Source: Candidatus Latescibacterota bacterium (GTDB lineage: Bacteria > Latescibacterota > UBA2968). Taken from it: DNA of 64,000 nt. Below are positions 38,413-54,024 of the stretch, one piece after another. Where the stretch lies: NCBI GenBank assembly GCA_965207885.1, contig OZ242311.1, positions 5,248,001 to 5,312,000 of the forward strand. The letters run 5' to 3'. The translations under genes and the position numbers were made by a program. The notes below the pieces were generated by a model. The model was not told where the DNA came from and ran no database searches. It was given only the letters and a program-made list of their open reading frames with translations. Every line of letters starts with the position of its first letter. The first letter of the stretch is position 1.

Positions 38413-41400
38413 CTACCACTTAATGCGCAAGCTGAAATTCATCTCGCGCGGAGAATCCCAATAGTTGCCGATATCGTTGATTTCCGGTGCTTGCAGACCC
38501 AGCGCAACAATATCGACATTGGTAGGCTCTAAGCCCATGATACCATACTTCTGATAGCGGTCGGAATCCCAATCTTCTGGAACCCCGCCAAGGCTATTCT
38601 GGCGCCAGTCCTTCTGATTGAACAAATTGTAGATCTCCACAGCCACGGTTATGTTCACGCCCGACATATTGCCAAATACCTTCTCGGCATTGAAGTCCGC
38701 ACGCGTATGGAGGGGACCCTGACGGAATCCCTGAATACCACCCGTGCTATACGTAAACCTGTTACCCGCGTAGAGATAATACACCAGATTGGAGCGAATA
38801 TTGCCCAGTGCTTTGCCCCCAAAAGGACCGTAGTTCGCCGGCGTGGCAAACAAGAACGTAATCGAACCGAAACTGCGGCGGTCAGCGGTCAGCGGAGCGC
38901 GCTCGCCCGATTCCTGGTTGTGCGCCACCGACAGGGTGCCTTCGCCACTTCCCGGATTGCCGGGATGGTTGCCAGCGCGTTCCCAAAATTCTCTGTCTCC
39001 ATCGTCGTAATGGCCCAGACTCGTACGGGCTTCATTGGCGACAAACTGCGCGCCCTCTGCCGAATAGTGCGAATACCACGGAATCCACGACCACGCACCA
39101 CCTCTGCCGTCGAAATTCAATATTCGGGTATGTTGAGACCGCAAATAAATATTCGCCTGTCTTCCATACGCCTCAATGTAGTGATCCTCGGGTAACCCTT
39201 CGCGACGGGCTTTTTCCCGCAGTGATACGGGCGTCTCTACGCCCGTCGTAGGATCGACATCCCAGGTGTTAAAGTAGTACCCACTGGCTACGAACTGAGA
39301 GTCTGGCCATACATCGCGGCGGTGCGCGCTATTGCGACCTCCGTCTGCCCACTGCAGGTTGTAGCCCACATTGAACGAGAACATGTTCGAGAATTTCTTC
39401 CGCAAATTGATCTCGAAACCGCGAACATCGCGCCAATTGCCCGGCCCATGGCCTTGAACACCCGTCACATACTGATGGCCTCCTGGATCAATCCACTGCT
39501 GTGAGGCGCTTCTGATCTCATTGCCCGACGCCTTGTAATAAGTCGTCAGCCCGAGCACGTAATCACCCACAAAGTTCCAGTCCAGACCCACCTCAAAAGA
39601 AGTGGTTTCTTCGGGAGGCAAATACGGAGTGCCGTGCCGTGAGCCAGAGTCATTGAACTCGTTGAACTGTTCGCCGGGATCGATCGAACCATTGCCATTC
39701 AGATCCCTATCCACGGCCTCATTGGACGTGAACTCGTTCATGAACATTTCGTGGAATTGCGGGCGCTGCACAAACCGACCGTAGAAAAAGCGCACGAGGC
39801 TCTTTTCCGTAATCGGGTGCGACACGCCAATGCGAGGCTGAACTGCTTTGATCGTGGGTCCCTTGGTTGTGGGAATATAGGCGGAACGCGTCATGCCATT
39901 CCAGGGCGCCTTAGCACCGTACCAGGCATCGGAGTCTTTGATATAGGTGTTCGGGAAGAAAATCTCGCCCCTCATGCCCGCATTCACAATCATCCCCTCA
40001 AACTCGATCTTGTCCTGAATATAGACACCAAAGTCAAGGGGATTGAGGCCCACATTGTTTCCACTGGGCCAGAATGCCGTATCTGTATAGTTCTGGGAGA
40101 ACCAGCGCAAACGACGGTGCGTGGGACCATTTGACCACCGCTGCTGATACCAGTTGTTGTAGCGAATCACTTCCACGCCGGCTTTCACAAAGTTCTGCTT
40201 GTTCACCTGGCTGGAAAGATCTGCCTTAAAGCTCACCCGGTTGTAGCTATACATGCTCCAGTTGTGCGTTTCGCGGTAAATCGTGTAGTGCCCTGCCGCA
40301 TCCTTCACACTCGAAGACGTCAGTTTATCATCTACGATAAAGTGGCGATGAAAGCCCGTGGTGTCGCGGTCCGTCGTCGAATAGCCCAGATTTACTTCGT
40401 AAAAAGTCTTGGGAGACAGGGAATGCGTCACAGCACCGTAAAACAACGCATCTGTGGTAACGAGGTTACCCGTTGGATTTACGACGTGTAAAAAGATATT
40501 TTTTCCACTGTTGCGCAAATCCAATCTGCCGCCATCGCTCGGGCCACCAAAGGTCCCTTCACTGCTATTGTAAATCCCCCCTGCTCGCAACTTCAAGCTG
40601 GGAGACGCAGAAAATGTCAACTTCGCCGTATTGCGCGTATTCCGGGGCGTGGTCAAATTGGCATTCAACAATGCCGCAGGCTCTTTGCGCCAGACCGTAC
40701 TGGCAAAAAATGTCATGTCCTGACTCAGAGGACCCGCGATATTGCCATCGATGCGATGCCCCATTTTGCCCGTGTAGTCCAGACGCTTGTGCGCCTGCAC
40801 GATATCGTTGGAACCATCGCCATCGAGGTCAGCGGGGATCTCGATCTGCTCTGCAACCCAGTCGGCATTATCCCACCTGTTATTGCCCCGGTGCATGGGC
40901 GAATCGTACACATTTGCACCCCAGTGCTTCTGTCCCGAAGGTGTGAATCGATAGTCCAGCATACCGCTGTATGACGAACCACCATCGCGCGTCACCATCG
41001 AAACCACACCACCCTGGGCATTGCCATACTCGGCGTTGTAACCGCCCGTAATCACCTGGAGTTCCTGAACCGCACTCTTGTTCAGGCTTCGTCCAATACC
41101 CGTGCGAGAACCATAGGAGTCAGTCGTTGAAATGCGAACGCCATCCACGATGTATGCCACATGGTCGCGGTCGCCGCCGCGAATCATAATCTCATCGCCT
41201 TCGGCATCGACGGAAACACCAGCCTGAAGCTCGATGAAATCACCCATATCGCGCACGATGGGTACGGCTTCGAGATCCTCGGCACTCATAATATACTTAC
41301 TCGTCGTCTTATCCGGCTCAACGGGCGGGCGCTCTGCAATCACCGTGATTTCGCCCAATTCCAGAGCTGCCTCTCGAATCTGGAAATCAACCGTCGTCGT

Positions 41401-41685
41401 CAAGTCAGTTTGAACCCTGATGTCGGTCTGACGCTGTGCATCATAACCCACTAACGAGGCCGTCATCGCATACGTGCCGGGATCGACGAGCAAAATGACA
41501 AAAAAGCCATCGGGATCGGTGACTGCACCGCGCTGTGTGCCTTCAATCACCACATTGGCACCCGGCAATACCTCACCCGTCTGCGCGTCGCGCACTGTCC
41601 CCTGCACTTTTCCCGTTGTCGCGGCATGTGAAACACCCGCGCTAACAAGCAAGGACAGCACAACTATTGAAAGTATCTTTCGCAT
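38413..41685 (-). CDS. TonB-dependent receptor
   Basis: TTGKVQG.V.DA.TGEVLPGANV (carboxypeptidase-regulatory-like), plug IRGG..YIVDG, TGGYNAEYG, QPRIGVSHPI, terminal SLRIKW. Confidence 0.92.
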   Translation of the reverse strand: MRKILSIVVLSLLVSAGVSHAATTGKVQGTVRDAQTGEVLPGANVVIEGTQRGAVTDPDGFFVILLVDPGTYAMTASLVGYDAQRQTDIRVQTDLTTTVDFQIREAALELGEITVIAERPPVEPDKTTSKYIMSAEDLEAVPIVRDMGDFIELQAGVSVDAEGDEIMIRGGDRDHVAYIVDGVRISTTDSYGSRTGIGRSLNKSAVQELQVITGGYNAEYGNAQGGVVSMVTRDGGSSYSGMLDYRFTPSGQKHWGANVYDSPMHRGNNRWDNADWVAEQIEIPADLDGDGSNDIVQAHKRLDYTGKMGHRIDGNIAGPLSQDMTFFASTVWRKEPAALLNANLTTPRNTRNTAKLTFSASPSLKLRAGGIYNSSEGTFGGPSDGGRLDLRNSGKNIFLHVVNPTGNLVTTDALFYGAVTHSLSPKTFYEVNLGYSTTDRDTTGFHRHFIVDDKLTSSSVKDAAGHYTIYRETHNWSMYSYNRVSFKADLSSQVNKQNFVKAGVEVIRYNNWYQQRWSNGPTHRRLRWFSQNYTDTAFWPSGNNVGLNPLDFGVYIQDKIEFEGMIVNAGMRGEIFFPNTYIKDSDAWYGAKAPWNGMTRSAYIPTTKGPTIKAVQPRIGVSHPITEKSLVRFFYGRFVQRPQFHEMFMNEFTSNEAVDRDLNGNGSIDPGEQFNEFNDSGSRHGTPYLPPEETTSFEVGLDWNFVGDYVLGLTTYYKASGNEIRSASQQWIDPGGHQYVTGVQGHGPGNWRDVRGFEINLRKKFSNMFSFNVGYNLQWADGGRNSAHRRDVWPDSQFVASGYYFNTWDVDPTTGVETPVSLREKARREGLPEDHYIEAYGRQANIYLRSQHTRILNFDGRGGAWSWIPWYSHYSAEGAQFVANEARTSLGHYDDGDREFWERAGNHPGNPGSGEGTLSVAHNQESGERAPLTADRRSFGSITFLFATPANYGPFGGKALGNIRSNLVYYLYAGNRFTYSTGGIQGFRQGPLHTRADFNAEKVFGNMSGVNITVAVEIYNLFNQKDWRQNSLGGVPEDWDSDRYQKYGIMGLEPTNVDIVALGLQAPEINDIGNYWDSPREMNFSLRIKW

Positions 41686-41700
41686 CAATTTTTACCTCCT

Positions 41701-42474
41701 TTAATCCCAGAAATAGAATTTGAACCCGGCACTCAGATCAAACATCTGAAGCGGAAATGCCTTGTCCAAGCCCCATGCATCTCGAGGGCGGAGTTCGCCG
41801 AGAATAAAATGATACCGCGCACGCACATCCAGCGCGATCGTCTGCGTCACATGCGCTTCCAGCCCCAACCCCAACACCGCGGTCACGGCCGTGCGCGTAT
41901 CTTCCTGGCGGTCCATCACCACCTGGGGCAAAATATCGCCCTGGGCATCCACATTCGTCGCATCTACACCGCTGGCATCGGTCGGACTCTGACCGGGCCA
42001 AACGATATTTTCTGCTATGGTCTTGTGATCGTACACACCGCCACCCGCAACGATATAAGGCGAAAAACTCCCCTCATCCATTGAACGGTCCGCATTAAAA
42101 AACCACAACCCGGACAATAGCACACTATTAAAGCGATTCGTGTGCGAACTATTCGGGTTGATATCTTTGCTGCTATATTGCTTGGCTGTCAAAGCCTTGG
42201 GGGACCAGGTAAACTCACCGGATTCCAGAGCGCCACCATCCATCTGAGTGTGGTGAAACTCGGCTTCAACGGTCAGGCGAGAGCTACTCACGCGACTGGC
42301 TGTAAGCCCCCATTTATCCACACCACTCCCAAACCGCTCACCAAAGGTGAACAGGGGATTGGTATAGCTGACAAACCCGCCCAGGCCCCACTTACCGGCA
42401 ACCTGAGCCGAAGACATGCTTGCCGAAGCTAGTACACCTGCAACGACAAAACCTAAAACTTTAAACCATCTCAA
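41701..42474 (-). CDS. outer-membrane beta-barrel protein
   Basis: TTG start with RBS GGAGG, signal peptide, SPYIVAGGG, terminal AGFKFYFWD. Confidence 0.8.
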   Translation of the reverse strand: MRWFKVLGFVVAGVLASASMSSAQVAGKWGLGGFVSYTNPLFTFGERFGSGVDKWGLTASRVSSSRLTVEAEFHHTQMDGGALESGEFTWSPKALTAKQYSSKDINPNSSHTNRFNSVLLSGLWFFNADRSMDEGSFSPYIVAGGGVYDHKTIAENIVWPGQSPTDASGVDATNVDAQGDILPQVVMDRQEDTRTAVTAVLGLGLEAHVTQTIALDVRARYHFILGELRPRDAWGLDKAFPLQMFDLSAGFKFYFWD

Positions 42475-42695
42475 AGTGCTACCTCCTTTCGCAAACTGCG
42501 AAAAATGAACGACTTAACAACTTTAACTATGCAACGCAAAAAAATCTATCTCTATTCATCACCTCCTTTTGTTTGTTATCACATCTGAAACATACAGCAC
42601 AAAAACAGCCATCAAGACATAATAGATTGAAAATTTGTTTCAAAAATGTTTCTAAAAATTCAATTTAATGTAAAAAAAAATTACGCGCTATGCAA

Positions 42696-43895
42696 TCATT
42701 TTTTTGCCTCTAACCGCAACCGCCTTGCCTCCGTGCGGATCTTATCCATCTCCATCTTCATCCGCACGATACCCTCCCAATGCGTATAATCTGGCGAATG
42801 GTGATACGCCGCCTTAAATGTAGTCGCGTGATAAAACTTGAACAACCTGAAAAACGCCTGCTCAATCTCCGATGTATTTTCGTACAACTGCTGCCCGCCC
42901 AGTTCAAAAGCGTGTCCAACCACCGGATTGGCCGGACGGTCTTCGGGCATGGGATCCAGCGCTCCTTCATCGTACAGCGCCTTAATCACCGCATAAGACT
43001 CTGCAACCAGCGCGTCGGCCTCGCGCTTAATCGCATCTGCACGCTCCAGGCTCTCTCGGGAAAACCGATTGGAATGACAGGGCGCACACACCTGCAACAT
43101 CGCATTCCGATTCGCTTCAAACTCCTCTTTTGTCAAACGTTTCATCGCCAGATGCGGCAAAAAATCCTCCTCGAGCACTGCCCCCGTAAACACCGCACCC
43201 AACCCGATATTTGCCACATGCCCGTGATCGCCATTGGGCATGTGGCACGTCACGCAACTCGGCGACTTCTCGGCATCTCTATCCGCATAATACAAAACCC
43301 CGTGAATACTCGTCTTATACGCCTCCATCACCGGATGGTCCGGACCGCCGTGACAAACGGCACATGCCTCTGGCTCTCGCGCAAGCGCCGCGCTAAATTC
43401 ATGACTCGGATGACAGGTGTTGCACCCTCCCACGCTGCCATCGGCAAACCGCGCGCCAATGCTGTGGCACCCCATACACCCCTCTTCTTGCATCGCGCGC
43501 GACTGTGCCAAAAAACGCGCATCTGACAACGCAGCCAATTCCGCATCGGCATGCCCGCTCTCTGCAAATGCCTCGACCTCTTCTGCGTGACATTTGCCAC
43601 ACATCCCCGCCGACACCTGCCCCCGAACAGCAAAAACCGTCTCGTGGTTCTCACCGTGGCAATCCGCACACCCCACATTGGCTCGAAAATGGGCACTCTC
43701 GCGCCACTGTTTATCCATACCCGGATCGATATTCCGATGGCACCCCTCGCACGACTGGTCACTCTGGATGCGCCACAAAAAACCCGGGCGAGCGGCAAAC
43801 CGAACCGCCTCTTCCGGCTGCAACACATAAAACACACCAAAAGCGCAACCCAATACCAGCACGCCAATGCCAACAATTTTCATCCAGCGCTTCAC
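42696..43895 (-). CDS. octaheme cytochrome c, HAO-like
   Basis: 8 CxxCH (CEGCH, CADCH, CGKCH, CMGCH, CNTCH, CAVCH, CVTCH, CAPCH), CH.GPDHP, and C-terminal AYHHSPDYTHWEG. Confidence 0.88.
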   Translation of the reverse strand: MKRWMKIVGIGVLVLGCAFGVFYVLQPEEAVRFAARPGFLWRIQSDQSCEGCHRNIDPGMDKQWRESAHFRANVGCADCHGENHETVFAVRGQVSAGMCGKCHAEEVEAFAESGHADAELAALSDARFLAQSRAMQEEGCMGCHSIGARFADGSVGGCNTCHPSHEFSAALAREPEACAVCHGGPDHPVMEAYKTSIHGVLYYADRDAEKSPSCVTCHMPNGDHGHVANIGLGAVFTGAVLEEDFLPHLAMKRLTKEEFEANRNAMLQVCAPCHSNRFSRESLERADAIKREADALVAESYAVIKALYDEGALDPMPEDRPANPVVGHAFELGGQQLYENTSEIEQAFFRLFKFYHATTFKAAYHHSPDYTHWEGIVRMKMEMDKIRTEARRLRLEAKK

Positions 43896-46657
43896 AATTC
43901 ACGCCCTTCCAATTCGCGCAACAAATCGCGCACCTGCACATTGCCCGGCTCTCGCGCAATCACGCGCCTCAAAATCGCAACCGCACTATCTCGCTGCCCG
44001 CCTATGGCATAAGCCTGTCCCATAAACAACTCCAACCCCTGCGCTTCTGGCTCCAGCACCCACGCCTGTCGATATACAGACAGCGCACCTCCTATATCGC
44101 CGCGCTCCTGTAAAACCGTACCCAGCACAGTAAGCGCAGGCACATAAAAAGGATCGACAATCAACGCATCCACCAAAAGAGATTCCGCAACCTCTAACTC
44201 GCCCAAATCAGCCCGAATAAGCCCCTGCATCGCATACACATCAGCGCGGTTGGCATGGTATTTCACCGCAACTTCAAAATGCGGCAACGCATCTGCGAGC
44301 GCACCCTGCACATAGACGCGGTGCCCGGCGGCAAAAACCGAATCCGATTTTGCGATCCCCACATCTCGCGCCTGCCTGCCCAAACCAAATAAACCCGTAC
44401 CCGCATCCTCCATTTCCAGCGCCCTGCCATAAGCCGCGCGCGCCAACGCCCAATCGCCCGACAGCGCATGTGCCGTCCCCCTTTCCACCCAATCGCCTAT
44501 CGGCATCTCGTCCCACTCATAATCATCGCGCACCTCGCCATCGCCAGCCGAAAACGCCAATAACGCGAGTTGTCGAATCGCCGGAACATATCCCGACGCA
44601 ATTGCAAGTGCGCGGCGATAGGCTTCGATAGCATCTGCGCGATCCCCACTACCCCACAGCGCATTACCCACAGCGGTATGCAAAACGGGCGAACCCTCGC
44701 GCACATCATCAAAAGTTGTCGCAGCATCTGCATAGCGTCCATGGTGCAACAGCAATGCACCTGCGCGCAACCGGGAAGTCAAATCGCTCTTCTCCCTGAG
44801 CAACGCCCTCATCTGCTCAAAACGCTTCTGTTTTTGCGCCAATCGCGCCAGATCTGCCGCGGTCTCCGGATGCCGGGGGTCTAACTTTGCAACAATCTCA
44901 AACTCCCGCCTCGCATCTTCAAAAAGCCCCTGCGCTTCATAGACCTGCCCCAAACCCTCGTGAAAGCCCGGATCGTCGCCCTGCACGCCATACACCACAT
45001 CGCGATGCTCCTCAAGTGCCCGGCGGAACGCATCGCCCACAGCGGAACCATCCGGCAAATAGCCAATATCCATCAACGCAAACGGCGCTTGCACCCGCAC
45101 AATGCGCGCCGAATCGGACAACGCATCCAAAAGCGCTGGCAAACCGCGCACATCGCCCAAACGCCCCAGCGAAATCGCCGCCTTCATCCGCACCATCGCA
45201 TGCGAATCACCCATCGCCTCAACCAGTGCCGGCACCGCACGCGCATCCTCCACCCCCCCCAGCAAAGACGCAGCCGTTGCACGCCAAACTGCACTCTCAC
45301 GCCCATCGTTTACCAACTTCATCAACGGCGCCACATCACCGCCCTTTTGCCCATTCGCAATCGCCGTTGTACGCGCCACAATTTCGCGCTGATAATCGCC
45401 GTACCACTGCTTTGCCCAGGCAGAAGCCCATTGAGCGGACTTATCTTCGTGACACTGATTGCACGCATTGGGCACCCCATTGACCACCGTATTTTCCGGC
45501 GCAGGGGATGCAATGCGGTGATCCGTCAAATTTTCTCCCGTCACATAGTGATATGGCATGTGACACTGCACGCATTGATTGCCCACACTGCCCGCGCGGT
45601 GATGCCCATGCGCGACCGGATCGGCTGCGACATCACCATGACACGTTTCGCACAACTCCACGCCATTTCGGTCCGCCAACAGATCTACATCGCGCGCTGT
45701 TCCGTGCGCGTCGTGGCACGTCGTACACGTCAATTCACCCTGAATATAACACGCACTCATCAAATGCAATGCCGCCGGATATAAATAAACCCGGGGCTGT
45801 CCATCGGGATAAAAAATCGCCTCGTCATCTGGCAACACAAGAGAATAATAATCGTAAAAATTCTCACCCGGCAAATACCCGGTCGCCACAATTTCCTTGG
45901 CGGAATGACACTGTGCACACACCTCAACAGACCGTTCCTTATCCAGCGACCGCAACAACAGCAAATGCAGCGGGGCATCGACCTGTCCGCGCGTCTCATC
46001 GTGTTTGCCCGACGGCCCGTGGCACGCCTCGCAATCAATACTCAGACTGCCCACAGTCGTGCGATAAGTCTGAGTAGGCACATCGTAATGCTTTTGCACC
46101 CGGCTGGCATGGCAATCAAAACAGTGAAAATTCCACGTGCGCCCCGCATTCGTCCAATAATAATAATCTTCTCCCGCAAGGGGCCGCGACTGAGCCACCA
46201 CCCCTCCTTCTTGTGCATCAACCCAATCATTTGTCGCGCCATCGTGATACAGCGGCAACACCTGCCACCGCCCATTGGGAAAAGCCGTCAAATAAGCCTG
46301 ATGCTGCCGCTTGCCAATCGCGTAATCCACGCGATGTGCTCTAACGCGCCCATCCTCATCCTCAGTCTGCATATAATACGCATCGCCTCTGCGAAACATG
46401 CGCGAACGCACACCGCCATACACATGGGACACATTGCCAAAATCGCCCACAATCGTCGAATCACTCGGCACAGTCATAGCGACGCTGTGCAAACTCTGCC
46501 GCCACTCGGCATACTTGTCGGTATGGCAGGCAGCGCACCGTTCCAGCCCCGTAAACCCCGGCTCAGAAGCGCGCACCAAATTGGGCACCTCGCGCTCCCG
46601 GCTGCACGACGCAAACACCAGAATCACCCATAAAATGTGAAATATCCCAAACCGCAT
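43892..46657 (-). CDS. octaheme cytochrome c lipoprotein with HEAT and TPR repeats
   Basis: FASC lipobox; 8 CxxCH (CAACH...CNQCH); HEAT repeats (DARAVPALVEAMGD); TPR C-terminus. Confidence 0.88.
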   Translation of the reverse strand: MRFGIFHILWVILVFASCSREREVPNLVRASEPGFTGLERCAACHTDKYAEWRQSLHSVAMTVPSDSTIVGDFGNVSHVYGGVRSRMFRRGDAYYMQTEDEDGRVRAHRVDYAIGKRQHQAYLTAFPNGRWQVLPLYHDGATNDWVDAQEGGVVAQSRPLAGEDYYYWTNAGRTWNFHCFDCHASRVQKHYDVPTQTYRTTVGSLSIDCEACHGPSGKHDETRGQVDAPLHLLLLRSLDKERSVEVCAQCHSAKEIVATGYLPGENFYDYYSLVLPDDEAIFYPDGQPRVYLYPAALHLMSACYIQGELTCTTCHDAHGTARDVDLLADRNGVELCETCHGDVAADPVAHGHHRAGSVGNQCVQCHMPYHYVTGENLTDHRIASPAPENTVVNGVPNACNQCHEDKSAQWASAWAKQWYGDYQREIVARTTAIANGQKGGDVAPLMKLVNDGRESAVWRATAASLLGGVEDARAVPALVEAMGDSHAMVRMKAAISLGRLGDVRGLPALLDALSDSARIVRVQAPFALMDIGYLPDGSAVGDAFRRALEEHRDVVYGVQGDDPGFHEGLGQVYEAQGLFEDARREFEIVAKLDPRHPETAADLARLAQKQKRFEQMRALLREKSDLTSRLRAGALLLHHGRYADAATTFDDVREGSPVLHTAVGNALWGSGDRADAIEAYRRALAIASGYVPAIRQLALLAFSAGDGEVRDDYEWDEMPIGDWVERGTAHALSGDWALARAAYGRALEMEDAGTGLFGLGRQARDVGIAKSDSVFAAGHRVYVQGALADALPHFEVAVKYHANRADVYAMQGLIRADLGELEVAESLLVDALIVDPFYVPALTVLGTVLQERGDIGGALSVYRQAWVLEPEAQGLELFMGQAYAIGGQRDSAVAILRRVIAREPGNVQVRDLLRELEGREL

Positions 46658-46749: not shown

Positions 46750-47595
46750 TTAAGGCTCTCCCCGCGCACACCGAAACCCAATATGGGCAAATATTTCATA
46801 AGTATCAAAATCGTCGCGCGACAGAGCTTGCTCTTCCATAATCAAAACCGTACTCCGCACAAACACGCGGATACTGGGTTGTGGTGAAAACCAACTCCCA
46901 CCGCGCAACGTGCGATCTGGCCCATCTTTCATACCTGAATTTTCTAAATTAACCGGATTGTGCCTGGGGCTATTTGCGTAATACGTATGCTGGTATTCAT
47001 CCAGCGTCCACTCCCACACATTGCCCGCCATATCCATCGCGCCATAAGGACTTGCACCATTCGGATAGCTGCCCACGGGCATGGGACCCGAACTGAAATT
47101 AAAATTGCACAGCGATTCACTCGCAGGCTCATTGCCCCAGGGAAACACGCGCCCATCTATACCCGCAGCGGTCAATTCCCACTGCGCCTCGCTCGGCAAT
47201 TGCAAACCCGCCCACTGGCAATAATCTCGCGCTTGAGACCACAAAACCCCCACCGCTGGCTGATCGGGTCGATCAAACCCCTCTATTCGAAAGTACTGCG
47301 GTTCTTCATTTCCCGTAGCCTCCACAAAAGCCAAATACTGCGCGTTGGTGACCTCGTATTTATCAATATAAAAAGCGTCGAGCATCACCTCGTGCGGCGG
47401 GCGCTCATTCGAAGGCCCATCGCTCGACCCCATCGTAAAGGTGCTGGCCGGAACAAAAACCTGCACATGCTCCGTACCCGCAGGCGTGGTCACAACAGAT
47501 TCTTCAATCACATATTCTGGATCGACCGCCTTGCTACAAGCCATGGCCAATGCAATACCCAAAACGCCGAATCGATAAACCGTTTTTGGTATCAT
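46750..47595 (-). CDS. FGE-sulfatase (SUMF1) domain lipoprotein
   Basis: FTMGS, FYIDKYEVTN, LPSEAQWE, DMAGNVWEW, RGGSW, IGFRCA; catalytic FGE cysteine pair absent; alternative start 47616. Confidence 0.9.
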   Translation of the reverse strand: MIPKTVYRFGVLGIALAMACSKAVDPEYVIEESVVTTPAGTEHVQVFVPASTFTMGSSDGPSNERPPHEVMLDAFYIDKYEVTNAQYLAFVEATGNEEPQYFRIEGFDRPDQPAVGVLWSQARDYCQWAGLQLPSEAQWELTAAGIDGRVFPWGNEPASESLCNFNFSSGPMPVGSYPNGASPYGAMDMAGNVWEWTLDEYQHTYYANSPRHNPVNLENSGMKDGPDRTLRGGSWFSPQPSIRVFVRSTVLIMEEQALSRDDFDTYEIFAHIGFRCARGEP

Positions 47596-47606
47596 GACGC
47601 ACTCCA

Positions 47607-48644
47607 TCACGTCCAAACAATATAATTGCCCGAATCCACCATAATGCGATGCACATACGTCTCGATCATGGCGTGATCCCGCTCGTGTTCTGCGGTCTTT
47701 AAACTAAATGGCCGCAACACTGGAATTTGCATCTCTGGATCTGTCCAATCTTGCACATAAACCGAATTTTTCATACCGCTCAACACAACCTGAATATCGG
47801 TTATCAAATCATCCGTAAAATGATTGGGCAAATCCCAAAGCGCTATCTCAGTATCAAAAGACTGCAAATCAGATACAAACCGCGTTTTGTGACTCTGAAC
47901 AGTCTCATTAAACGCCCTCTGCAACGCCATGCGCCCATCCAAATGCGTGCATGTACGCACCAGAGGTCCCAAATCTTTGGGACACACCACCGCGTGAACC
48001 GTCGTCACCTTCTCATTTTCTCCCGGCACAGCCACAGCCAGCATCTTCTCTGTAACGCGAGGGGAAAAACCCGTCAAATTCGGATCGATAAATTGCCGGT
48101 GTTCCAACCCGGGCCAGTAAAAATGCCTCCCCACATCCAGGTGCTCGTGCATCTCCAGCAAACCGTGAAACACGCACTCCAGCACAGTATTGCCCGCCGA
48201 GACCCCATTTGCCGAATCATTCAAATGCGGCACATCCGACACCTTCATATTGGACGGCACAAGCTCTACATCGGAAGTCAACTCATAAATGGGAGTCTCC
48301 CTCCCGCTCGCCAGCGCATCAAAAAACGAAATGCGCTCGACCGCCTCTGCCATCGCCCCGGCCAGCACTTGCTGTTTGGAAAGCCCCTTGCCCATCGTTC
48401 GAAGCGCGATACCCTCCATCAGAGGCCCTTCGTATTTGCGAAACAGTGCCGACTGCACGTAATCCGTATAACAATCGGCGATCCACACCGTATCGTAAAA
48501 CCGCCGCGCGCGCGTTTGAAACCGACACTTTTTGGACAGCGCCTCCCCAAACCGCGCAATGGTCTCTTCAAACGGAACCGTGCGATCGGCAACAACAATG
48601 CTTGTGCCGTAATGATTGAATACGGTATGATGCGACTCGCTCAT
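47607..48644 (-). CDS. short YcaO-family protein
   Basis: GKGLSKQQVLAGAMAEAVER, SANGVSAGNT...GLLEMHE, RAFNETVQS, D.T.P...IPV. Confidence 0.75.
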   Translation of the reverse strand: MSESHHTVFNHYGTSIVVADRTVPFEETIARFGEALSKKCRFQTRARRFYDTVWIADCYTDYVQSALFRKYEGPLMEGIALRTMGKGLSKQQVLAGAMAEAVERISFFDALASGRETPIYELTSDVELVPSNMKVSDVPHLNDSANGVSAGNTVLECVFHGLLEMHEHLDVGRHFYWPGLEHRQFIDPNLTGFSPRVTEKMLAVAVPGENEKVTTVHAVVCPKDLGPLVRTCTHLDGRMALQRAFNETVQSHKTRFVSDLQSFDTEIALWDLPNHFTDDLITDIQVVLSGMKNSVYVQDWTDPEMQIPVLRPFSLKTAEHERDHAMIETYVHRIMVDSGNYIVWT

Positions 48645-49774
48645 TGCGCCCGTGCCCGATTCATATCTTCAACCGCCTCGGCAAATCGCCCCATTTGACG
48701 AAACGTCTCCGCGCGGAGTTCTCGTGCCCATCCATTTTCGGGATCAATATCCAACGCCCGTGTAAAATCTGAAACCGCTGACTCATACTGCCCCAGCATT
48801 CGTCGAGACTCCCCGCGATTTGCCCAAATCCACGCATCCCTGTTCTCCAGCATCACCGCCCGATCAAAATCGATCAGCGACGCCTCGGGATCATTTTCCA
48901 TCCGCAATGCAACGCCTCGCCCCATAAGTGCCCAAAGATGATCGGGAAAAATCTCCAGCGCCCGTGTAAAATCGCGTATTGCTTCGGCACTTCTCCCCAA
49001 TTGCCGCAACATATCACCCCGCGCGGCCAACAAATCCGGGTCGTCAGATGCGATAATGAGTGCGCGATCAAAATCCAAAAGCGCGTCCTCCACTTGACCG
49101 ATCTCTCGCAGCACCTCGCCCCGCCCGATCAATGCACCCAGATGATCGGGCATCACCTTCAAAGCCTGCCCAAACATCTCCATCGCGGCCTCAGCCTCAC
49201 CAGCCTGACGGTAGATCTCCGCCCGCCCGGCAAACGCATCCGGATGCCCATTGCCCACTGCAATCGCCCGGTCAAAATCGACCGCAGCCGCGTTAAACTG
49301 CCCCAACTGCATCAACACATGCCCGCGACTGATCAGCGCGCCAAAATAATCCGCATCCAACGCCAAAACCCGATTGAGATCCCCCAAAGCCTCCTCAAAC
49401 CTCCCTACCTCGCGCAAGGTCTCTCCCCGACTCGCAAGAGCCTGCGTATTTTCCGGATCGAGCGCAACAGCTTTTCCAAAACTATCTATCGCCGCATCAA
49501 ACTGCCCCATCAACCCGCAGGCAATCGCGCGATTGCTCCACACATAGGGATCATCTGGTGCCAGAGCAATTGCGCGGTCAAAATCCGCAATCGCCGCATC
49601 AAATCTCCCCAATTGCCCATAAGTAATCCCGCGCTGAACAAACACAGCGGGATCGCCATCGCGGATTGCAACAGCCGCATCAAAACCCGCAACAGCCGCT
49701 TCCAGATCGCCGCCATCGCGGAGCGCGATAGCGCGCTGAACCACAGATTCAAAGTCATTTATAGATAGAGACAT
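48641..49774 (-). CDS. TPR-repeat protein
   Basis: About ten 34-aa repeats RG....LG.F..A..DFDRA. Confidence 0.9.
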   Translation of the reverse strand: MSLSINDFESVVQRAIALRDGGDLEAAVAGFDAAVAIRDGDPAVFVQRGITYGQLGRFDAAIADFDRAIALAPDDPYVWSNRAIACGLMGQFDAAIDSFGKAVALDPENTQALASRGETLREVGRFEEALGDLNRVLALDADYFGALISRGHVLMQLGQFNAAAVDFDRAIAVGNGHPDAFAGRAEIYRQAGEAEAAMEMFGQALKVMPDHLGALIGRGEVLREIGQVEDALLDFDRALIIASDDPDLLAARGDMLRQLGRSAEAIRDFTRALEIFPDHLWALMGRGVALRMENDPEASLIDFDRAVMLENRDAWIWANRGESRRMLGQYESAVSDFTRALDIDPENGWARELRAETFRQMGRFAEAVEDMNRARAQ

Positions 49775-49920
49775 AGAAAAAAAAGTGGGAACCCCGAAAC
49801 AGCCCAAACGTGAACACAATGTAGATAAACAAAACCCCAAAATCAAGCGCAAACCCCGTGACATTTTGCGCGCGATTTAGTATATTAGCAATCAGCTATC
49901 AGCAGTCAGCTAAAAACCTT

Positions 49921-50023: not shown

Positions 50024-50053
50024 GATGAAGCTCTCACCTTATGGAGGAACACC

Positions 50054-51364
50054 ATGAAACACCTGCGAATGCGTATTTTCTCTATCGCCCTATTTTTGGG
50101 CTTATGCACAACAGCTTTTGCCCAGTCCGGAGTGGGTGAAAAAGTAAACGAATTTCAACTTCAAGCCACCGATGGCAGATCTTATGGCGTCAGCCATTCG
50201 ACCAACACGGTCTCCGTCCTCTTTTTTGTAGGTTACAACTGAGGGACTTGCATAGGGGCGGGTCCCGCCTTTGAAAAAGATGTTCACCAACGCAACAAAG
50301 ACAAAACCGGCATACAGATCCTCACACTCGACAGATACGACGGCAACCGCACACAGGCAACATCCTATCTGACGCGATCCAGTGTCACGACGCCCATGCT
50401 CACAAGTGCCTCTGGCGTCTCCGCAACTCTCGGCACTCGCAACGAGGACATCCTCGTCATCGACCAAGGCGGCATCCTGCGCCTCAGAACCACAGCAATC
50501 GCCACTGGCTCTGCTGACCTGGTCAACGCGCAAGTCGATGCACTACTCAACAAAACGCCTGTTATTTCCCTCTTCCCATCAGAGATCTACTTTGGCAGAA
50601 CCCTTGAAGTAGGGCAATCCAAAACCGTAGAATTTAAAATCGAAAACACCGGTGCAGGACCCCTCGAAATCACCGGATACTCGGCTCCCGAAGGCATCAC
50701 AATGGAGCCATCCACACTGACCATAGCTCCTGGCGAAAGCAAAACCGTACAAATCACCCTGACGCCAATGCAAGCCGGCACATTTTCGGGTAAAATCACC
50801 CTCCAACACGGCGAACAAAGTGTTGGCACCCTGGAAATACCCGTTCTCGACCTCACCATCGAAGCGTCCCCGCTCCCGATCATTTCACTAATTCAGGAAA
50901 ATTTGAGTTTGGGTGAAATCGAAATGGGCAGAGGCATCACAACAACATTTACCATCACAAATACTGGTACAGGCCCACTCAACATCACAGACATCCAATC
51001 CGACATCGCGGGCATTGCGCTTTCAGAAACCCAATTAACAGTGCCACCCGGTCAATCTCAGGACATCACCGTGACTTTCAATCCGCCAGCTCCAGGTCCA
51101 ATTACCGGCACCATCGACATAATCTCAAACGACCCGGAAAAAGCCTCAATCAGCCTGACCATCACCGGTTCGGCCATCTTCATCCCCGCTGATCCACGCA
51201 CCGACTTCAATGGTTCGCTCACCGTTGACTTTTATGACTTCCTCCTATTCTCAGAAGCCTTTGGCACGGCCAATGCAAACTTTGATCTCGACGGGTCCGG
51301 CACTGTTGACTTTCCCGACTTTCTCATATTTGTCGCAAGCTTTGGAAAAGCAGTCAACGGATGA
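50054..51364 (+). CDS. probable selenoprotein: secreted redoxin (UxxC) + two Ig-like (ASH/choice-of-anchor-D-like) domains + EF-hand/dockerin-like tail
   Basis: ORFs 50054..50242 and 50396..51364 are in frame and separated only by TGA 50240-50242, reading VLFFVGYN-U-GTC; downstream hairpin. Confidence 0.82.
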
Positions 51365-51529: not shown

Positions 51530-52231
51530 ATGTCCCACCGTCAAACGCTCACCAACGCATTCAAACGCATCCTCGAAATAGCGGATCACAACCATCTCTA
51601 TTTGCCCTTTCAACGCGACAGCAAACTGCGGGCAAAACACTTTCCCGGTGCAGGGGCTAAAATCGGGCGGAAAAAACTCATCGACGCATATCTCCAGGAA
51701 TTTGGCGACACAAACCCCGATGAAAAATTACTCCAACACGTCACCTATCCCTGGATTCACGGGTACGACGCCAGCCTCACACATATTCTCGACGACCTTC
51801 GAAAACACCAAAAAAAAGCACCCGCCGAACTTTCTCTTGAGCGCAAACGCGCACTCGAAAAGAAATTTACCCGCACGGGTGCCGAAGAAATCTCCGCCTT
51901 TTGGAGCGTATATGCCGCTGCTGACAACAGCTATCGCAAAAGCGTCATAAAAATGCTCGCCCGCGTCAAACCTCCCGAAACGGCCCCTCCAACCATTCAG
52001 CCGACACAAAAGCCCACAATCCACGATTATCCTCAGCCCGAATCCGCCACACAATCGATATATGCATTGTTGGGCACGCTCATCTTCTTTGTCCCCGCCC
52101 TTATATTTGTTATAATACAATACTGGCGACTCCCGAACGAAAGCCACTACATCGCCCTATCAATCGCCGGATTTTTTGGGCTAATCACACTCATTTTTCT
52201 CATCGACTACCTGCGAAAACGCAACATTTGA
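51530..52231 (+). CDS. hypothetical membrane protein
   Basis: 233-aa ORF with two C-terminal TMs. Confidence 0.65.
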   Translation: MSHRQTLTNAFKRILEIADHNHLYLPFQRDSKLRAKHFPGAGAKIGRKKLIDAYLQEFGDTNPDEKLLQHVTYPWIHGYDASLTHILDDLRKHQKKAPAELSLERKRALEKKFTRTGAEEISAFWSVYAAADNSYRKSVIKMLARVKPPETAPPTIQPTQKPTIHDYPQPESATQSIYALLGTLIFFVPALIFVIIQYWRLPNESHYIALSIAGFFGLITLIFLIDYLRKRNI

Positions 52232-54024
52232 TCACAATGAAACGCCCTCTCGTCATCGCACTCTTTCTCGCCTTCCCGATTTGCCCCTGGGCCGCTCCCC
52301 TCCAAATCGGCGATACCCTCAATGACTTTATCCTTGCCGACCTCAACGGCTCGCCCGTTACCCTCAGTGATTTATCCCAGGACCGCGCACTCGTCATCAT
52401 CTTCGGTTCCGTCGTCTGCCCTGCCTCGCTAAAATACGACATACATCGAACACAAATACACGATCGGTATGCTCCCAAAGGCGTACACCTGATATCTGTA
52501 AATGCCAATTTTAACGAAACCGACAAAGACATCAAAGAACACTACGCCCAAAACCCCGTACCCTTCACCATCCTGCGCGACCCGCACAACAAACTCGCCG
52601 ATCACCTCGGCGCGACCCACACCCCCCACGCCTTTCTCTTTGACGCCCAGCGCCGCCTGCGCTACAAGGGAGAAATCGACAACGGCTGGGGCATCCCCGA
52701 AGATACGACCTCGCGCGGATTGTGGGACGCCCTCAATGCACTGCTCGCCAACCGCAAAATCGCCAACACCAGCCTCCCCAGTTTTGGCTGTGAAATCAGA
52801 CGCACGCCCCGGCAAACAACTGTCGCGAACACCTCCACCCCAACATTTTATCGCGACATCCTGCCCCTGCTCCAAAATCGCTGCCAGAACTGTCATCGCC
52901 CCGGCGGCATTGGTCGCGTACCCTTTTTCGACTACACAGAAGTACTCGCATGGGCCTATCAGATGCGCGACTCCATCGAAGCCCGCATCATGCCACCCTG
53001 GAAAGCGCGCCCCGAATACGGCGACTTCAAAAATTCCCGCAGACTCACAGACGCCGAAATCCTCACCTTCGCGCAATGGGTCAACAGCGGCATGCCAGAG
53101 GGCAATCCCGCCGACCAGCCCGAACCCATTGCATTTTCCAAAAGCTGGACCCTGGGCACGCCCGACCTGATCCTCGAACCCAAAGCACCCTATCCACTCG
53201 AAGCTGTGGGCCGCGACGAATACCGCTGCTTTGTCTTGCCCACAAAACAGGACACGGGCAACTACGTATCGGCCATTGAAGTCCTGCCCGGAGCGCGCGA
53301 AGTTGTCCACCACGTCAGCGTGTACATCGACATCTCTGGCAAAGCACGCCTGCAACAGGAAAACGCGTCCGCGCCGGGCTACCCTTGCTTTGGCGGCATT
53401 GGCGTACCCATCTACGAATCCCTGGGCGGCTGGGCACCCGGCAACACCCCCTTTGTTCTTCCAGATGGCATAGGTCGCGATTTACCGCCCAACAGCGACA
53501 TCATCCTCCAGATCCACTATCACAAAATTGGCCGCGCCGTAAAAGATCATTCTCGATTGGGCATCTACTTTGCCCAAAAACCCGTACAAAAACAGCTCCG
53601 CGAAGAAGTCATCAACAGCCGCTTGCTCTTCATTCCCCCCAACATCAAACGACACAGAGTAACCGGCGCAATCACCATCACACGCAACCAGCACCTGCTC
53701 GGTATTTTGCCTCACATGCACTTGCTCGGCACGGAAATGAAAATAACCGCAACCTATCCCAACGGCACCCAAAAACCCCTGATATGGGTCAAACCCTGGG
53801 ACTTTAACTGGCAAGAAACCTACGTGTACAAAACACCCATCGCACTCCCGCGCGGCACCCGCATCGCGCTCGAAGCCTTTTACGACAACTCTGCCGACAA
53901 CCCCCAAAACCCCAACAATCCACCCAGGCTGGTGCGATGGGGCGAAAAATCAACCGATGAAATGTGTACCGCATTTCTCTATGTCACACACGATGATGAA
54001 AACTTAGAGGCAAGTAAGAAGTGA
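52228..54024 (+). CDS. redoxin + c-type heme + copper type II (PHM/DbH-like) monooxygenase fusion
   Basis: Redoxin (VVCP, TP..F.FD..LRYKG.ID), CQNCH, MPPW, VVHH, QIHY, PHMH, WDFNWQ, DEMC. Confidence 0.85.
   Translation: MITMKRPLVIALFLAFPICPWAAPLQIGDTLNDFILADLNGSPVTLSDLSQDRALVIIFGSVVCPASLKYDIHRTQIHDRYAPKGVHLISVNANFNETDKDIKEHYAQNPVPFTILRDPHNKLADHLGATHTPHAFLFDAQRRLRYKGEIDNGWGIPEDTTSRGLWDALNALLANRKIANTSLPSFGCEIRRTPRQTTVANTSTPTFYRDILPLLQNRCQNCHRPGGIGRVPFFDYTEVLAWAYQMRDSIEARIMPPWKARPEYGDFKNSRRLTDAEILTFAQWVNSGMPEGNPADQPEPIAFSKSWTLGTPDLILEPKAPYPLEAVGRDEYRCFVLPTKQDTGNYVSAIEVLPGAREVVHHVSVYIDISGKARLQQENASAPGYPCFGGIGVPIYESLGGWAPGNTPFVLPDGIGRDLPPNSDIILQIHYHKIGRAVKDHSRLGIYFAQKPVQKQLREEVINSRLLFIPPNIKRHRVTGAITITRNQHLLGILPHMHLLGTEMKITATYPNGTQKPLIWVKPWDFNWQETYVYKTPIALPRGTRIALEAFYDNSADNPQNPNNPPRLVRWGEKSTDEMCTAFLYVTHDDENLEASKK

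Follow-up and report, generated by a model that had tools for sequence, protein, structure and literature searches.

Does the open reading frame (ORF) that starts at position 50054 of this stretch of a Candidatus Latescibacterota genome (hereafter the window, the whole 64,000 nucleotides analysed) end at the TGA of its codon 63, or is this TGA read as selenocysteine (Sec, U) within a longer gene? The sequence and the ORF list give a 62-aa ORF on the + strand, from ATG 50054 to TGA 50240-50242. Past this codon the same frame stays open until TGA 51362-51364, and reading the first TGA as U yields a protein of 436 aa in which the codon lies in the context VSVLFFVGYN-U-G-T-C-IGAGP. An earlier note on this DNA had described such an uninterrupted frame, and both the sequence and the ORF list agree with it. 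The analysis presented here leaves us with little doubt that 50054-51364 is a real selenoprotein gene. It is also very probably one gene, in which codon 63, within a TlpA-like redox domain, encodes Sec, and in which immunoglobulin (Ig)-like and dockerin-like modules are part of the same chain.

To compare the codon at residue 63, 44 loci of other genomes were searched with residues 1-175 by tblastn, and 47 matches cover this residue. It is TGA in 42 of them, TGT in four and TGC in one. After removal of duplicates, 40 distinct sequences remain, 35 with TGA (the window being one of them) and five with TGT or TGC, and the TGA is retained in these 35 at identities down to 26%. The placing of the TGA at the first position of a thioredoxin-fold UxxC motif, proposed in the earlier note, is therefore confirmed, and the Cys homologues that the note suggested looking for exist. 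In a search of 168 genomes of the phylum Latescibacterota, the N-terminal domain is present in 101. Among the 150 matches listed of 166, exactly one in-frame TGA occurs in 142, none in five and other stops in three, and up to five of the matches listed come from one genome. The five Cys forms fall at four separate places in a tree of 32 N-domains. Three of them adjoin Sec paralogues within the same locus, and tandem Sec/Cys pairs within one genome are found in L032, L132 and L133. A further family copy (L038:3016-3393) retains the TGA and the hairpin discussed below, but its frame closes after 126 aa; the same genome holds the L033 gene, of which this copy is probably a decayed duplicate.

Public annotation follows another pattern. 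A large public protein collection holds 106 matches to the 436-aa query, and none of those with at least 63% identity spans the TGA: their calls start after it and are 251-347 aa long, mostly 321-322 or 295 aa. Just three of the 106 cover at least 93% of the query (P0066, P0070 and P0080), all of them Cys or degenerate forms. P0066 and P0070 are full-length and carry Cys at the position of the window's TGA (GYN-C-APC and GHN-C-APC versus GYN-U-GTC), and P0080 has lost the redox motif. Standard annotation does split this gene, as had been anticipated.

The genome of the window, a single contig of 6.23 Mb, harbors selA, selB, selD and tRNA-Sec, the machinery whose presence the earlier note had proposed to check. 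The selA gene (575 bits) adjoins selB (386.3 bits), and the tRNA-Sec (70.1 bits, anticodon tca) adjoins selD (368.9 bits), which itself has one in-frame TGA. Moreover, three more redoxin genes of this genome have TGA at the redox cysteine. One is a paralogue of the family at G000:C1:5552597-5553877 (-), with the motif FGYS-U-PSCRAAGP and one in-frame TGA in a 463-aa open frame ending in TAG; its tail passes Pfam Dockerin_1 with 28.0 bits. The two others, at G000:C1:1178141-1178425 (-) and 3533361-3533495 (-), are a peroxiredoxin (Prx) with STGG-U-TAE and a Prx-like redoxin with YW-U-PHC, and these two together with selD (L001) are likely further selenoproteins of the genome.

A hairpin resembling a bacterial selenocysteine insertion sequence (SECIS) follows the UGA of the window gene. 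Its arms are AGGGGCG (50254-50260) and CGCCTTT (50266-50272) around GGTCC (50261-50265); it begins 11 nt after the UGA and its loop begins at the 19th nt, so that direct reading supports the position and spacing claimed for it earlier. Our survey took in all of the 35 distinct TGA sequences except L107. The passages of PMC1088965 that deal with bacterial SECIS elements describe a stem-loop immediately 3' of the UGA whose small apical loop contains G, and each of the 34 Sec sequences surveyed has a hairpin in this place. The hairpin starts 10-13 nt after the UGA, over conserved Gly-Pro codons. In 33 of the 34, the distance from the UGA to the start of the loop is 16-19 nt, and 32 have a G within the first two loop positions; the loop is GUC in 14, GGUC in nine, GGC in three and of other types in the rest. 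Since the hairpin overlaps conserved codons, each sequence was compared with 300 synonymous recodings of itself. The mean hairpin energy is -10.4 kcal/mol versus -5.6 for the recodings, all 34 sequences lie below their own recoding mean, and 22 lie within the best 5%. For the window (stretch 50249-50278) the energy is -11.0 kcal/mol versus a recoding mean of -5.7, and three of 300 recodings reach this stability. The energies of the corresponding region are -7.1 to -9.5 kcal/mol for the three other TGA-bearing redoxin genes of the genome, 0.0 to -6.1 for ten of its ordinary Cys-type TlpA-like genes, and -1.2, -7.9, -7.3, -6.7 and -6.8 for the five Cys forms of the family.

Several observations temper this view of the hairpin. 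The 34 sequences are related, 16 of them being of one genus, and 12 lie outside the best 5% of their recodings. The paralogue of the same genome is also outside (96 of 300 recodings as stable), and four of the five Cys forms still fold at -6.7 to -7.9 kcal/mol. As the hairpin sits on conserved Gly-Pro codons, it partly follows from the protein sequence. Covariation in a fixed register is absent: 68.1% of cells are paired over the 34 sequences, a value that 173 of 500 shuffles equal or exceed, and a register shifted by -1 gives 69.7%. No Rfam match was obtained on 50150-50400, where only chance-level rows appear (mir-329, E 0.087; ALIL, E 5). In addition, the minimum-energy fold of 50235-50300 is another hairpin, GGGACUUGC/GCGGGUCCC, with a z of only -1.34. 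This alternative, directly after the UGA, was rejected as close relatives break it (GGA ACU), and the hairpin 50254-50272 is retained in these same relatives. A single SECIS conserved position by position was also rejected, fixed-register pairing being no better than in controls; the stems of different subfamilies stand in different registers. The conserved element is a stable hairpin in this place, whose G-rich loop stands 16-19 nt downstream of the UGA. The proposed fit to the bacterial SECIS model thus stands for stability, distance and loop, and fails for the exact register, which varies across the family. The SECIS of the E. coli fdhF type is a minimal stem-loop 11 nt after the UGA with GU in the loop. 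The window hairpin shares this start, and the loop here is GGUCC or GGUC, but the stems are short and GC-rich, depend on the subfamily for sequence and register, and have no Rfam match.

The redox domain is read across the TGA. Pfam AhpC-TSA matches residues 27-140 (E 3.3e-5, 24.3 bits), and the family profile matches in the PDB 2ls5 (E 9.7e-21 over 142 positions), 3kcm (2.3e-14) and ResA 4nmu (7.4e-13), the CxxC being aligned in the profile alignments to 2ls5 and 3kcm. Seven positions are invariant in the 32 N-domains: G28, F34, G60, U63 (U or C), C66, G97 and P114 (precursor numbering). The AlphaFold (AF2) model of residues 23-173 has a predicted local distance difference test score (pLDDT) of 92.8. 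Foldseek places 2ls5 first (TMq 0.81), followed by DsbE and ResA. By VIA, 2ls5 again has the highest score (Z 20.0, root-mean-square deviation 2.5 over 152 residues), and DsbE 3gl3 (Z 18.1), ResA 2f9s (Z 17.1), CcmG 1kng (Z 15.9) and TlpA 1jfu (Z 13.6) follow. In the model, U63 and C66 lie at the start of helix 64-81, and the secondary-structure elements of a single thioredoxin domain extend from residue 35 to residue 166. Compared with ResA, TlpA and CcmG (DsbE), the domain has the same fold, the CxxC at the start of alpha-1, the Pro at +5 from the second Cys, a putative cis-Pro loop and a putative export signal; it differs by Sec as the nucleophile, by a docking tail instead of a membrane anchor, and by identities of only 12-19%. 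The closest solved structure, 2ls5, is a putative protein disulfide isomerase of Bacteroides thetaiotaomicron, a single-domain Cys protein whose function was not tested. A candidate assignment to the TUGYCR redoxin selenoproteins of NCBIfam was rejected (13.7 bits versus a cut-off of 100).

The Ig-like domains pass curated thresholds (NF012200, 105.4 bits versus 45; PF22544, 94.1 versus 25.5), and VIA matches residues 270-377 to the HYDIN PapD-like domain 2e6j (Z 13.4). In the full-length model (pLDDT 88.0) the redoxin domain is followed by two beta-sandwich domains and, in the tail, by two short helices; at a predicted template modelling score (pTM) of 0.49, the model does not define how the domains are placed relative to one another. 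Domain matches and model therefore agree with the Ig-like domains and the EF-hand or dockerin-like tail that had been read after the redoxin. In nearly all members of the family the redoxin and the tail are retained together with the putative signal peptide; Ig domains differ in number, which gives lengths of 234, 327-339, 429-448, 537-538, 750 and 1408 aa. The suggestion that the architecture is unusual holds in part: the fusion is real, but it is no one-off, being the standard build of a family found in 101 of 168 genomes. The NCBIfam model of the OS_HP2 family (seleno)protein (NF041425) matches Ig domain 2 only (50909-51172, residues 286-373) with 60.4 bits versus 100. Membership was rejected on this cut-off, the likeness concerning the Ig fold and not the Sec site; this marine selenoprotein family is apparently built on the same Ig-like fold.

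The tail contains two tandem loops, D-F-N-G-S-L-T-V-D-F-Y-D and D-L-D-G-S-G-T-V-D-F-P-D, and in the model a helix comes after each of them (393-402 and 420-429); we take the calcium-ligand positions from EF-hand numbering. Two such calcium-loop and helix segments in tandem are what characterizes a type I dockerin. The module is widespread in the genome, where Dockerin_1 (cut-off 22.9 bits) is found at 61 places, the tail of the paralogue included, and the tail profile gives 83 domain matches. At an independent E-value of 1e-9 or below, 70 ORFs bear the module: it is C-terminal in 31, comes shortly behind the N-terminus in 30 and is internal in nine. Twenty of them were scanned against Pfam. 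Their partners are HmuY, sulfatase, glucose/sorbosone dehydrogenase, GH113, YHYH, DUF1501, Temptin_C, pectate-lyase-like/DUF4955 (twice), WD40, LRR (twice), LDL-B propeller and lactonase; three have no domain at E <= 1e-5 and one has Dockerin_1 alone. Two others are Cys-type AhpC/TSA redoxins with an N-terminal tail module, located at G000:C1:772191-772904 (-) and 6073152-6073868 (+), with the motifs WATWCSPC and WGTWCGPC. Together with the two Sec members of the family, the combination of a redoxin with this module thus recurs four times in the genome.

The same genome encodes two cohesin domains above the Pfam cut-off (G000:C1:722600-723028 and 726470-726901), in open frames of 3038 and 1268 aa. 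Both cohesin proteins share a C-terminal sequence type, which in the 1268-aa protein scores as a type A sorting domain of the type IX secretion system (T9SS; 38.8 bits versus 23). The two giants lie at G000:C1:714185-727168 (+), with a dockerin-like module directly before each cohesin, and two more small cohesin-like ORFs are found at 3279783-3280112 and 4183546-4183881. Relatives of the genome's cohesin are present in all 31 genomes of the window's family. A complex prediction of cohesin, tail and two Ca gave a score of 0.15 versus a mark of 0.32; controls were not folded, and it counts neither way. Cellulosomal type I dockerins (PF00404) and their cohesins (PF00963) offer the obvious comparison. 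The tandem loop-helix repeats, the Asp/Asn at calcium-ligand positions, the many copies per genome on unrelated secreted enzymes and the cohesins in the same genome are alike. The differences are the window copy below the Pfam cut-off, the diderm host, the T9SS sorting domains of the cohesin proteins, and a cargo of redox enzymes, heme-binding proteins, sulfatases and repeat proteins, not mainly glycoside hydrolases.

These observations can be set against the other ways of reading the gene. If the TGA were a true stop, the locus would be a broken gene, or would consist of two genes, one for a secreted peptide of 62 aa and one for an Ig/dockerin protein of 322 aa starting at ATG 50396. Public gene callers do annotate this two-part version, with calls starting after the TGA, but we consider it very improbable. 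A TGA at the same codon in 35 distinct sequences, replaced by Cys in five, is hard to reconcile with it. The 51 codons from the TGA to ATG 50396 are stop-free in 22 orthologues, and their variable sites number 18, 17 and 42 at codon positions 1, 2 and 3; variation mostly at third positions is the pattern of translated sequence under purifying selection. Moreover, the single thioredoxin domain needs both halves, and ATG 50396 falls inside it, with no Shine-Dalgarno-like motif seen upstream on inspection of the sequence. A reading of UGA as Trp, Gly or Cys, by reassignment or readthrough, is more improbable still. Such reassignment occurs in some uncultured lineages, but here TGA terminates the window gene and 17 of 40 complete family genes and is hence an ordinary stop in these organisms, the matches typically have a single in-frame TGA, at the redox cysteine position (142 of the 150 listed have exactly one), and the genome has the full Sec machinery with a tRNA of anticodon tca. 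The assignment of selenocysteine derives from sequence comparison and models. The location of the protein is a separate matter. The signal peptide was assigned by eye, and the N-terminal helix 2-16 has low pLDDT in the full-length model; the stretch ...TTAFAQ is kept in orthologues in the alignment of the 32 N-domains. This conserved, signal-peptide-like N-terminus suggests a putative extracytoplasmic location.

With selenocysteine retained as the reading of codon 63, the chemistry of the domain and the role of the tail have to be weighed. The earlier note had pointed to AhpC/TSA-like UxxC selenoproteins, and on such a peroxiredoxin-like reading the protein could be a surface peroxidase and not a protein disulfide reductase or isomerase. 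Pfam's top match is indeed AhpC-TSA, the peroxiredoxins 5enu, Bcp1 3drn and AhpE reach Z 16.8-17.2 by VIA versus 17.1 for ResA, and Sec favours peroxide chemistry in other enzyme families. However, the protein lacks the PxxxTxxC motif of Prx, having Leu at -7 and Gly at -3 from U63, and the family alignment likewise shows neither Pro nor Thr at these positions; the UxxC is followed by Pro at +5 from the second Cys and accompanied by a putative cis-Pro loop, as in TlpA/ResA; and the best relatives by sequence and structure are 2ls5, DsbE and ResA. For these reasons the peroxiredoxin reading does not hold and a peroxidase is unlikely. The modelled N-domain is a TlpA/ResA-like thiol-disulfide oxidoreductase fold with Sec at the nucleophilic first position of UxxC, and its activity is probably TlpA-like thiol-disulfide exchange. 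Some scores count against this assignment: the domain stays below the cut-offs of Pfam AhpC-TSA (24.3 < 26) and Redoxin (20.1 versus 26.6 bits), and no NCBIfam model fits it, ResA NF002854 giving 14.8 bits versus 170. As for the tail, it may be an EF-hand pair that only binds calcium or stabilises the protein, or a tag for secretion or sorting, instead of a cohesin-binding dockerin. This we hold to be the less probable reading, though far from negligible: EF-hand_1 is the top Pfam match of the window's tail, half of the tail-bearing proteins have the module N-terminally, just after the signal peptide, and only four cohesin-like domains face about 70 tail-bearing ORFs. The tail itself is below every curated cut-off (EF-hand_1 21.5, Dockerin_1 17.8, dockerin_GC 21.7 bits) and absent from the 61 Dockerin_1 places, and a Sec-type signal peptide as the only export signal would have to bring the protein to a T9SS-anchored surface cohesin in a diderm cell. 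On the other side, many copies in the genome do pass the Dockerin_1 cut-off, the genome and its family have cohesins, and type I dockerins have the same duplicated loop-helix layout. The tail copies across the genome, its cohesins and the retention of the tail in the family make a docking role likely, and we lean towards a docking module; that its partner is the genome's own cohesin is possible but rather doubtful.

We propose the following course for decoding, export, redox direction, reductant, substrate and docking. SelB with Sec-tRNA(Sec) would bind the hairpin about 11 nt after UGA 50240-50242, and the codon would be read as U63. The protein would be exported through its N-terminal signal peptide, with predicted cleavage after AFA23. 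In the mature protein, U63-G-T-C66 would lie at the start of helix alpha-1 opposite Pro114, followed by two Ig spacers and the dockerin-like tail with its Ca loops. Sec63 may act as an exposed nucleophile on disulfides or other oxidised sulfur of envelope or surface proteins, forming a selenylsulfide intermediate that Cys66 would resolve. Re-reduction might be carried out by a membrane reductase of the DsbD/CcdA type; a DsbD_TM domain is found elsewhere in the genome (112.2 bits), and a DsbD-type membrane reductase could recycle the Sec redoxin. The tail would probably tether the enzyme to a cohesin-type partner or another surface receptor.

The features of the gene and of its downstream neighbours are collected in Table 1.

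Table 1. Coordinates, in the window, of the selenoprotein gene, its parts and the genes that follow it
Feature	Position	Strand	Support or remark
Shine-Dalgarno-like GGAGGA	50043..50048	+	5 nt upstream of ATG 50054; read from sequence
Whole selenoprotein gene	50054..51364	+	436 codons and stop TGA 51362-51364; orthologues elsewhere full-length at 429-448 aa
Putative signal peptide, residues 1-23	50054..50122	+	By-eye call: MKHLRMR, hydrophobic core, AFA before QS
TlpA/ResA-like thioredoxin-fold domain, residues 24-169	50123..50560	+	Profile, model and structure matches
UGA read as selenocysteine U63, first residue of U-G-T-C	50240..50242	+	Codon conservation; starts helix 64-81 in model
Resolving cysteine C66 (TGC)	50249..50251	+	Invariant in 32 N-domains (C44, mature numbering)
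SECIS-like hairpin, 7 bp AGGGGCG/CGCCUUU, loop GGUCC	50254..50272	+	ViennaRNA extends it to 9 bp, loop GUC, 50253-50273
Pro114 (VTTP), putative thioredoxin-fold cis-proline position	50393..50395	+	P92 of the mature protein, unchanged among 32 N-domains
Ig-like domain 1, choice-of-anchor D / HYDIN-VesB / DUF1573 type	50561..50863	+	Family matches; beta strands 171-270 in model
Ig-like domain 2, same type as domain 1	50876..51178	+	PF22544 94.1 bits, PF07610 93.6 bits
Dockerin-like tail, two 12-residue Ca-type loop and helix repeats (DFNGSLTVDFYD..., DLDGSGTVDFPD...)	51185..51361	+	Residues 378-436
Downstream neighbour, 237 aa	51518..52231	+	Syntenic in genus and L025, L026, L127, L129
AhpC/TSA redoxin and copper type II monooxygenase-like fusion	52228..54024	+	Syntenic in L025, L026

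Around the gene, synteny extends throughout the genus and to orthologues further away for three neighbours: a divergent tetratricopeptide repeat (TPR) gene, the 237-aa gene and the redoxin/copper-monooxygenase fusion. The 237-aa protein has no Pfam or NCBIfam match. The fusion gene, which overlaps its 3' end, encodes 598 aa, with an AhpC/TSA-Redoxin domain (active site VVCPAS) and N and C domains resembling those of copper type II ascorbate-dependent monooxygenases. Upstream, a gene similar to FGE-sulfatase, a 345-aa YcaO gene and the TPR gene lie in a row at 46750-49864 (-), divergent from the selenoprotein gene, and relatives of the TPR and YcaO genes are also near the family member in L034. 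Further upstream, at 38413-46657 (-), are two multi-haem cytochromes, one of 921 aa with HEAT and TPR repeats and one of 399 aa; the same stretch encodes an outer-membrane beta-barrel protein and a protein similar to TonB-dependent receptors.

The sections of a 2026 review of prokaryotic selenoproteomes that treat UxxC proteins list Prx-like (PF00578), TlpA-like (cd02966), Redoxin (PF08534) and thiol:disulfide interchange types, and the Global Ocean Sampling and Sargasso Sea papers report UxxC selenoproteins and several fusions in their corresponding passages (PMC1088965, PMC2398784). Ig or dockerin fusions are not among the fusions described in those passages of the two papers. The window protein resembles the known UxxC selenoproteins by Sec first in UxxC, a TlpA/Prx-like thioredoxin fold, Cys homologues and a G-loop hairpin after the UGA; it differs by an N-domain that reaches no Pfam or NCBIfam cut-off and, as judged from the descriptions of the known families, by the fusion to Ig and dockerin-like modules. 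The name of the phylum is absent from the 2026 review and from the BSepDB paper, and our literature search found no paper describing a Latescibacterota selenoprotein or a dockerin-bearing selenoprotein. The gene product belongs to the UxxC thioredoxin-fold selenoproteins, a known class, and within it to a distinct phylum-wide family whose standard build, a redoxin with Ig spacers and a dockerin-like tail, is undescribed in the literature searched. L034, from a record titled Gemmatimonadetes, does not show a spread beyond the phylum: its genome, G168, gives matches at the contig number and near-same coordinates of G067, which belongs to the window's own GTDB family.

The family adds a phylum-wide and often multi-copy member to the bacterial selenoproteome. 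It also exposes a systematic annotation error, as close public gene calls begin after the TGA. Its natural Sec/Cys pairs are material for asking what Sec adds to a TlpA-type active site. A selenoenzyme that probably belongs to the exported, possibly surface-docked proteome also touches on the question of what bacteria gain from using selenium in redox reactions outside the cytoplasm. A more ambitious picture, which we regard as unlikely, is that of a Latescibacterota surface cohesin-dockerin complex built on T9SS-anchored giant scaffolds with about 70 docked components, among them Sec and Cys thiol redoxins, heme-binding proteins, sulfatases and polysaccharide-active enzymes. If it were true, no selenoenzyme docked into an extracellular complex of this kind would have been known before this one, which would supply selenium-based disulfide or oxidant chemistry outside the cell.

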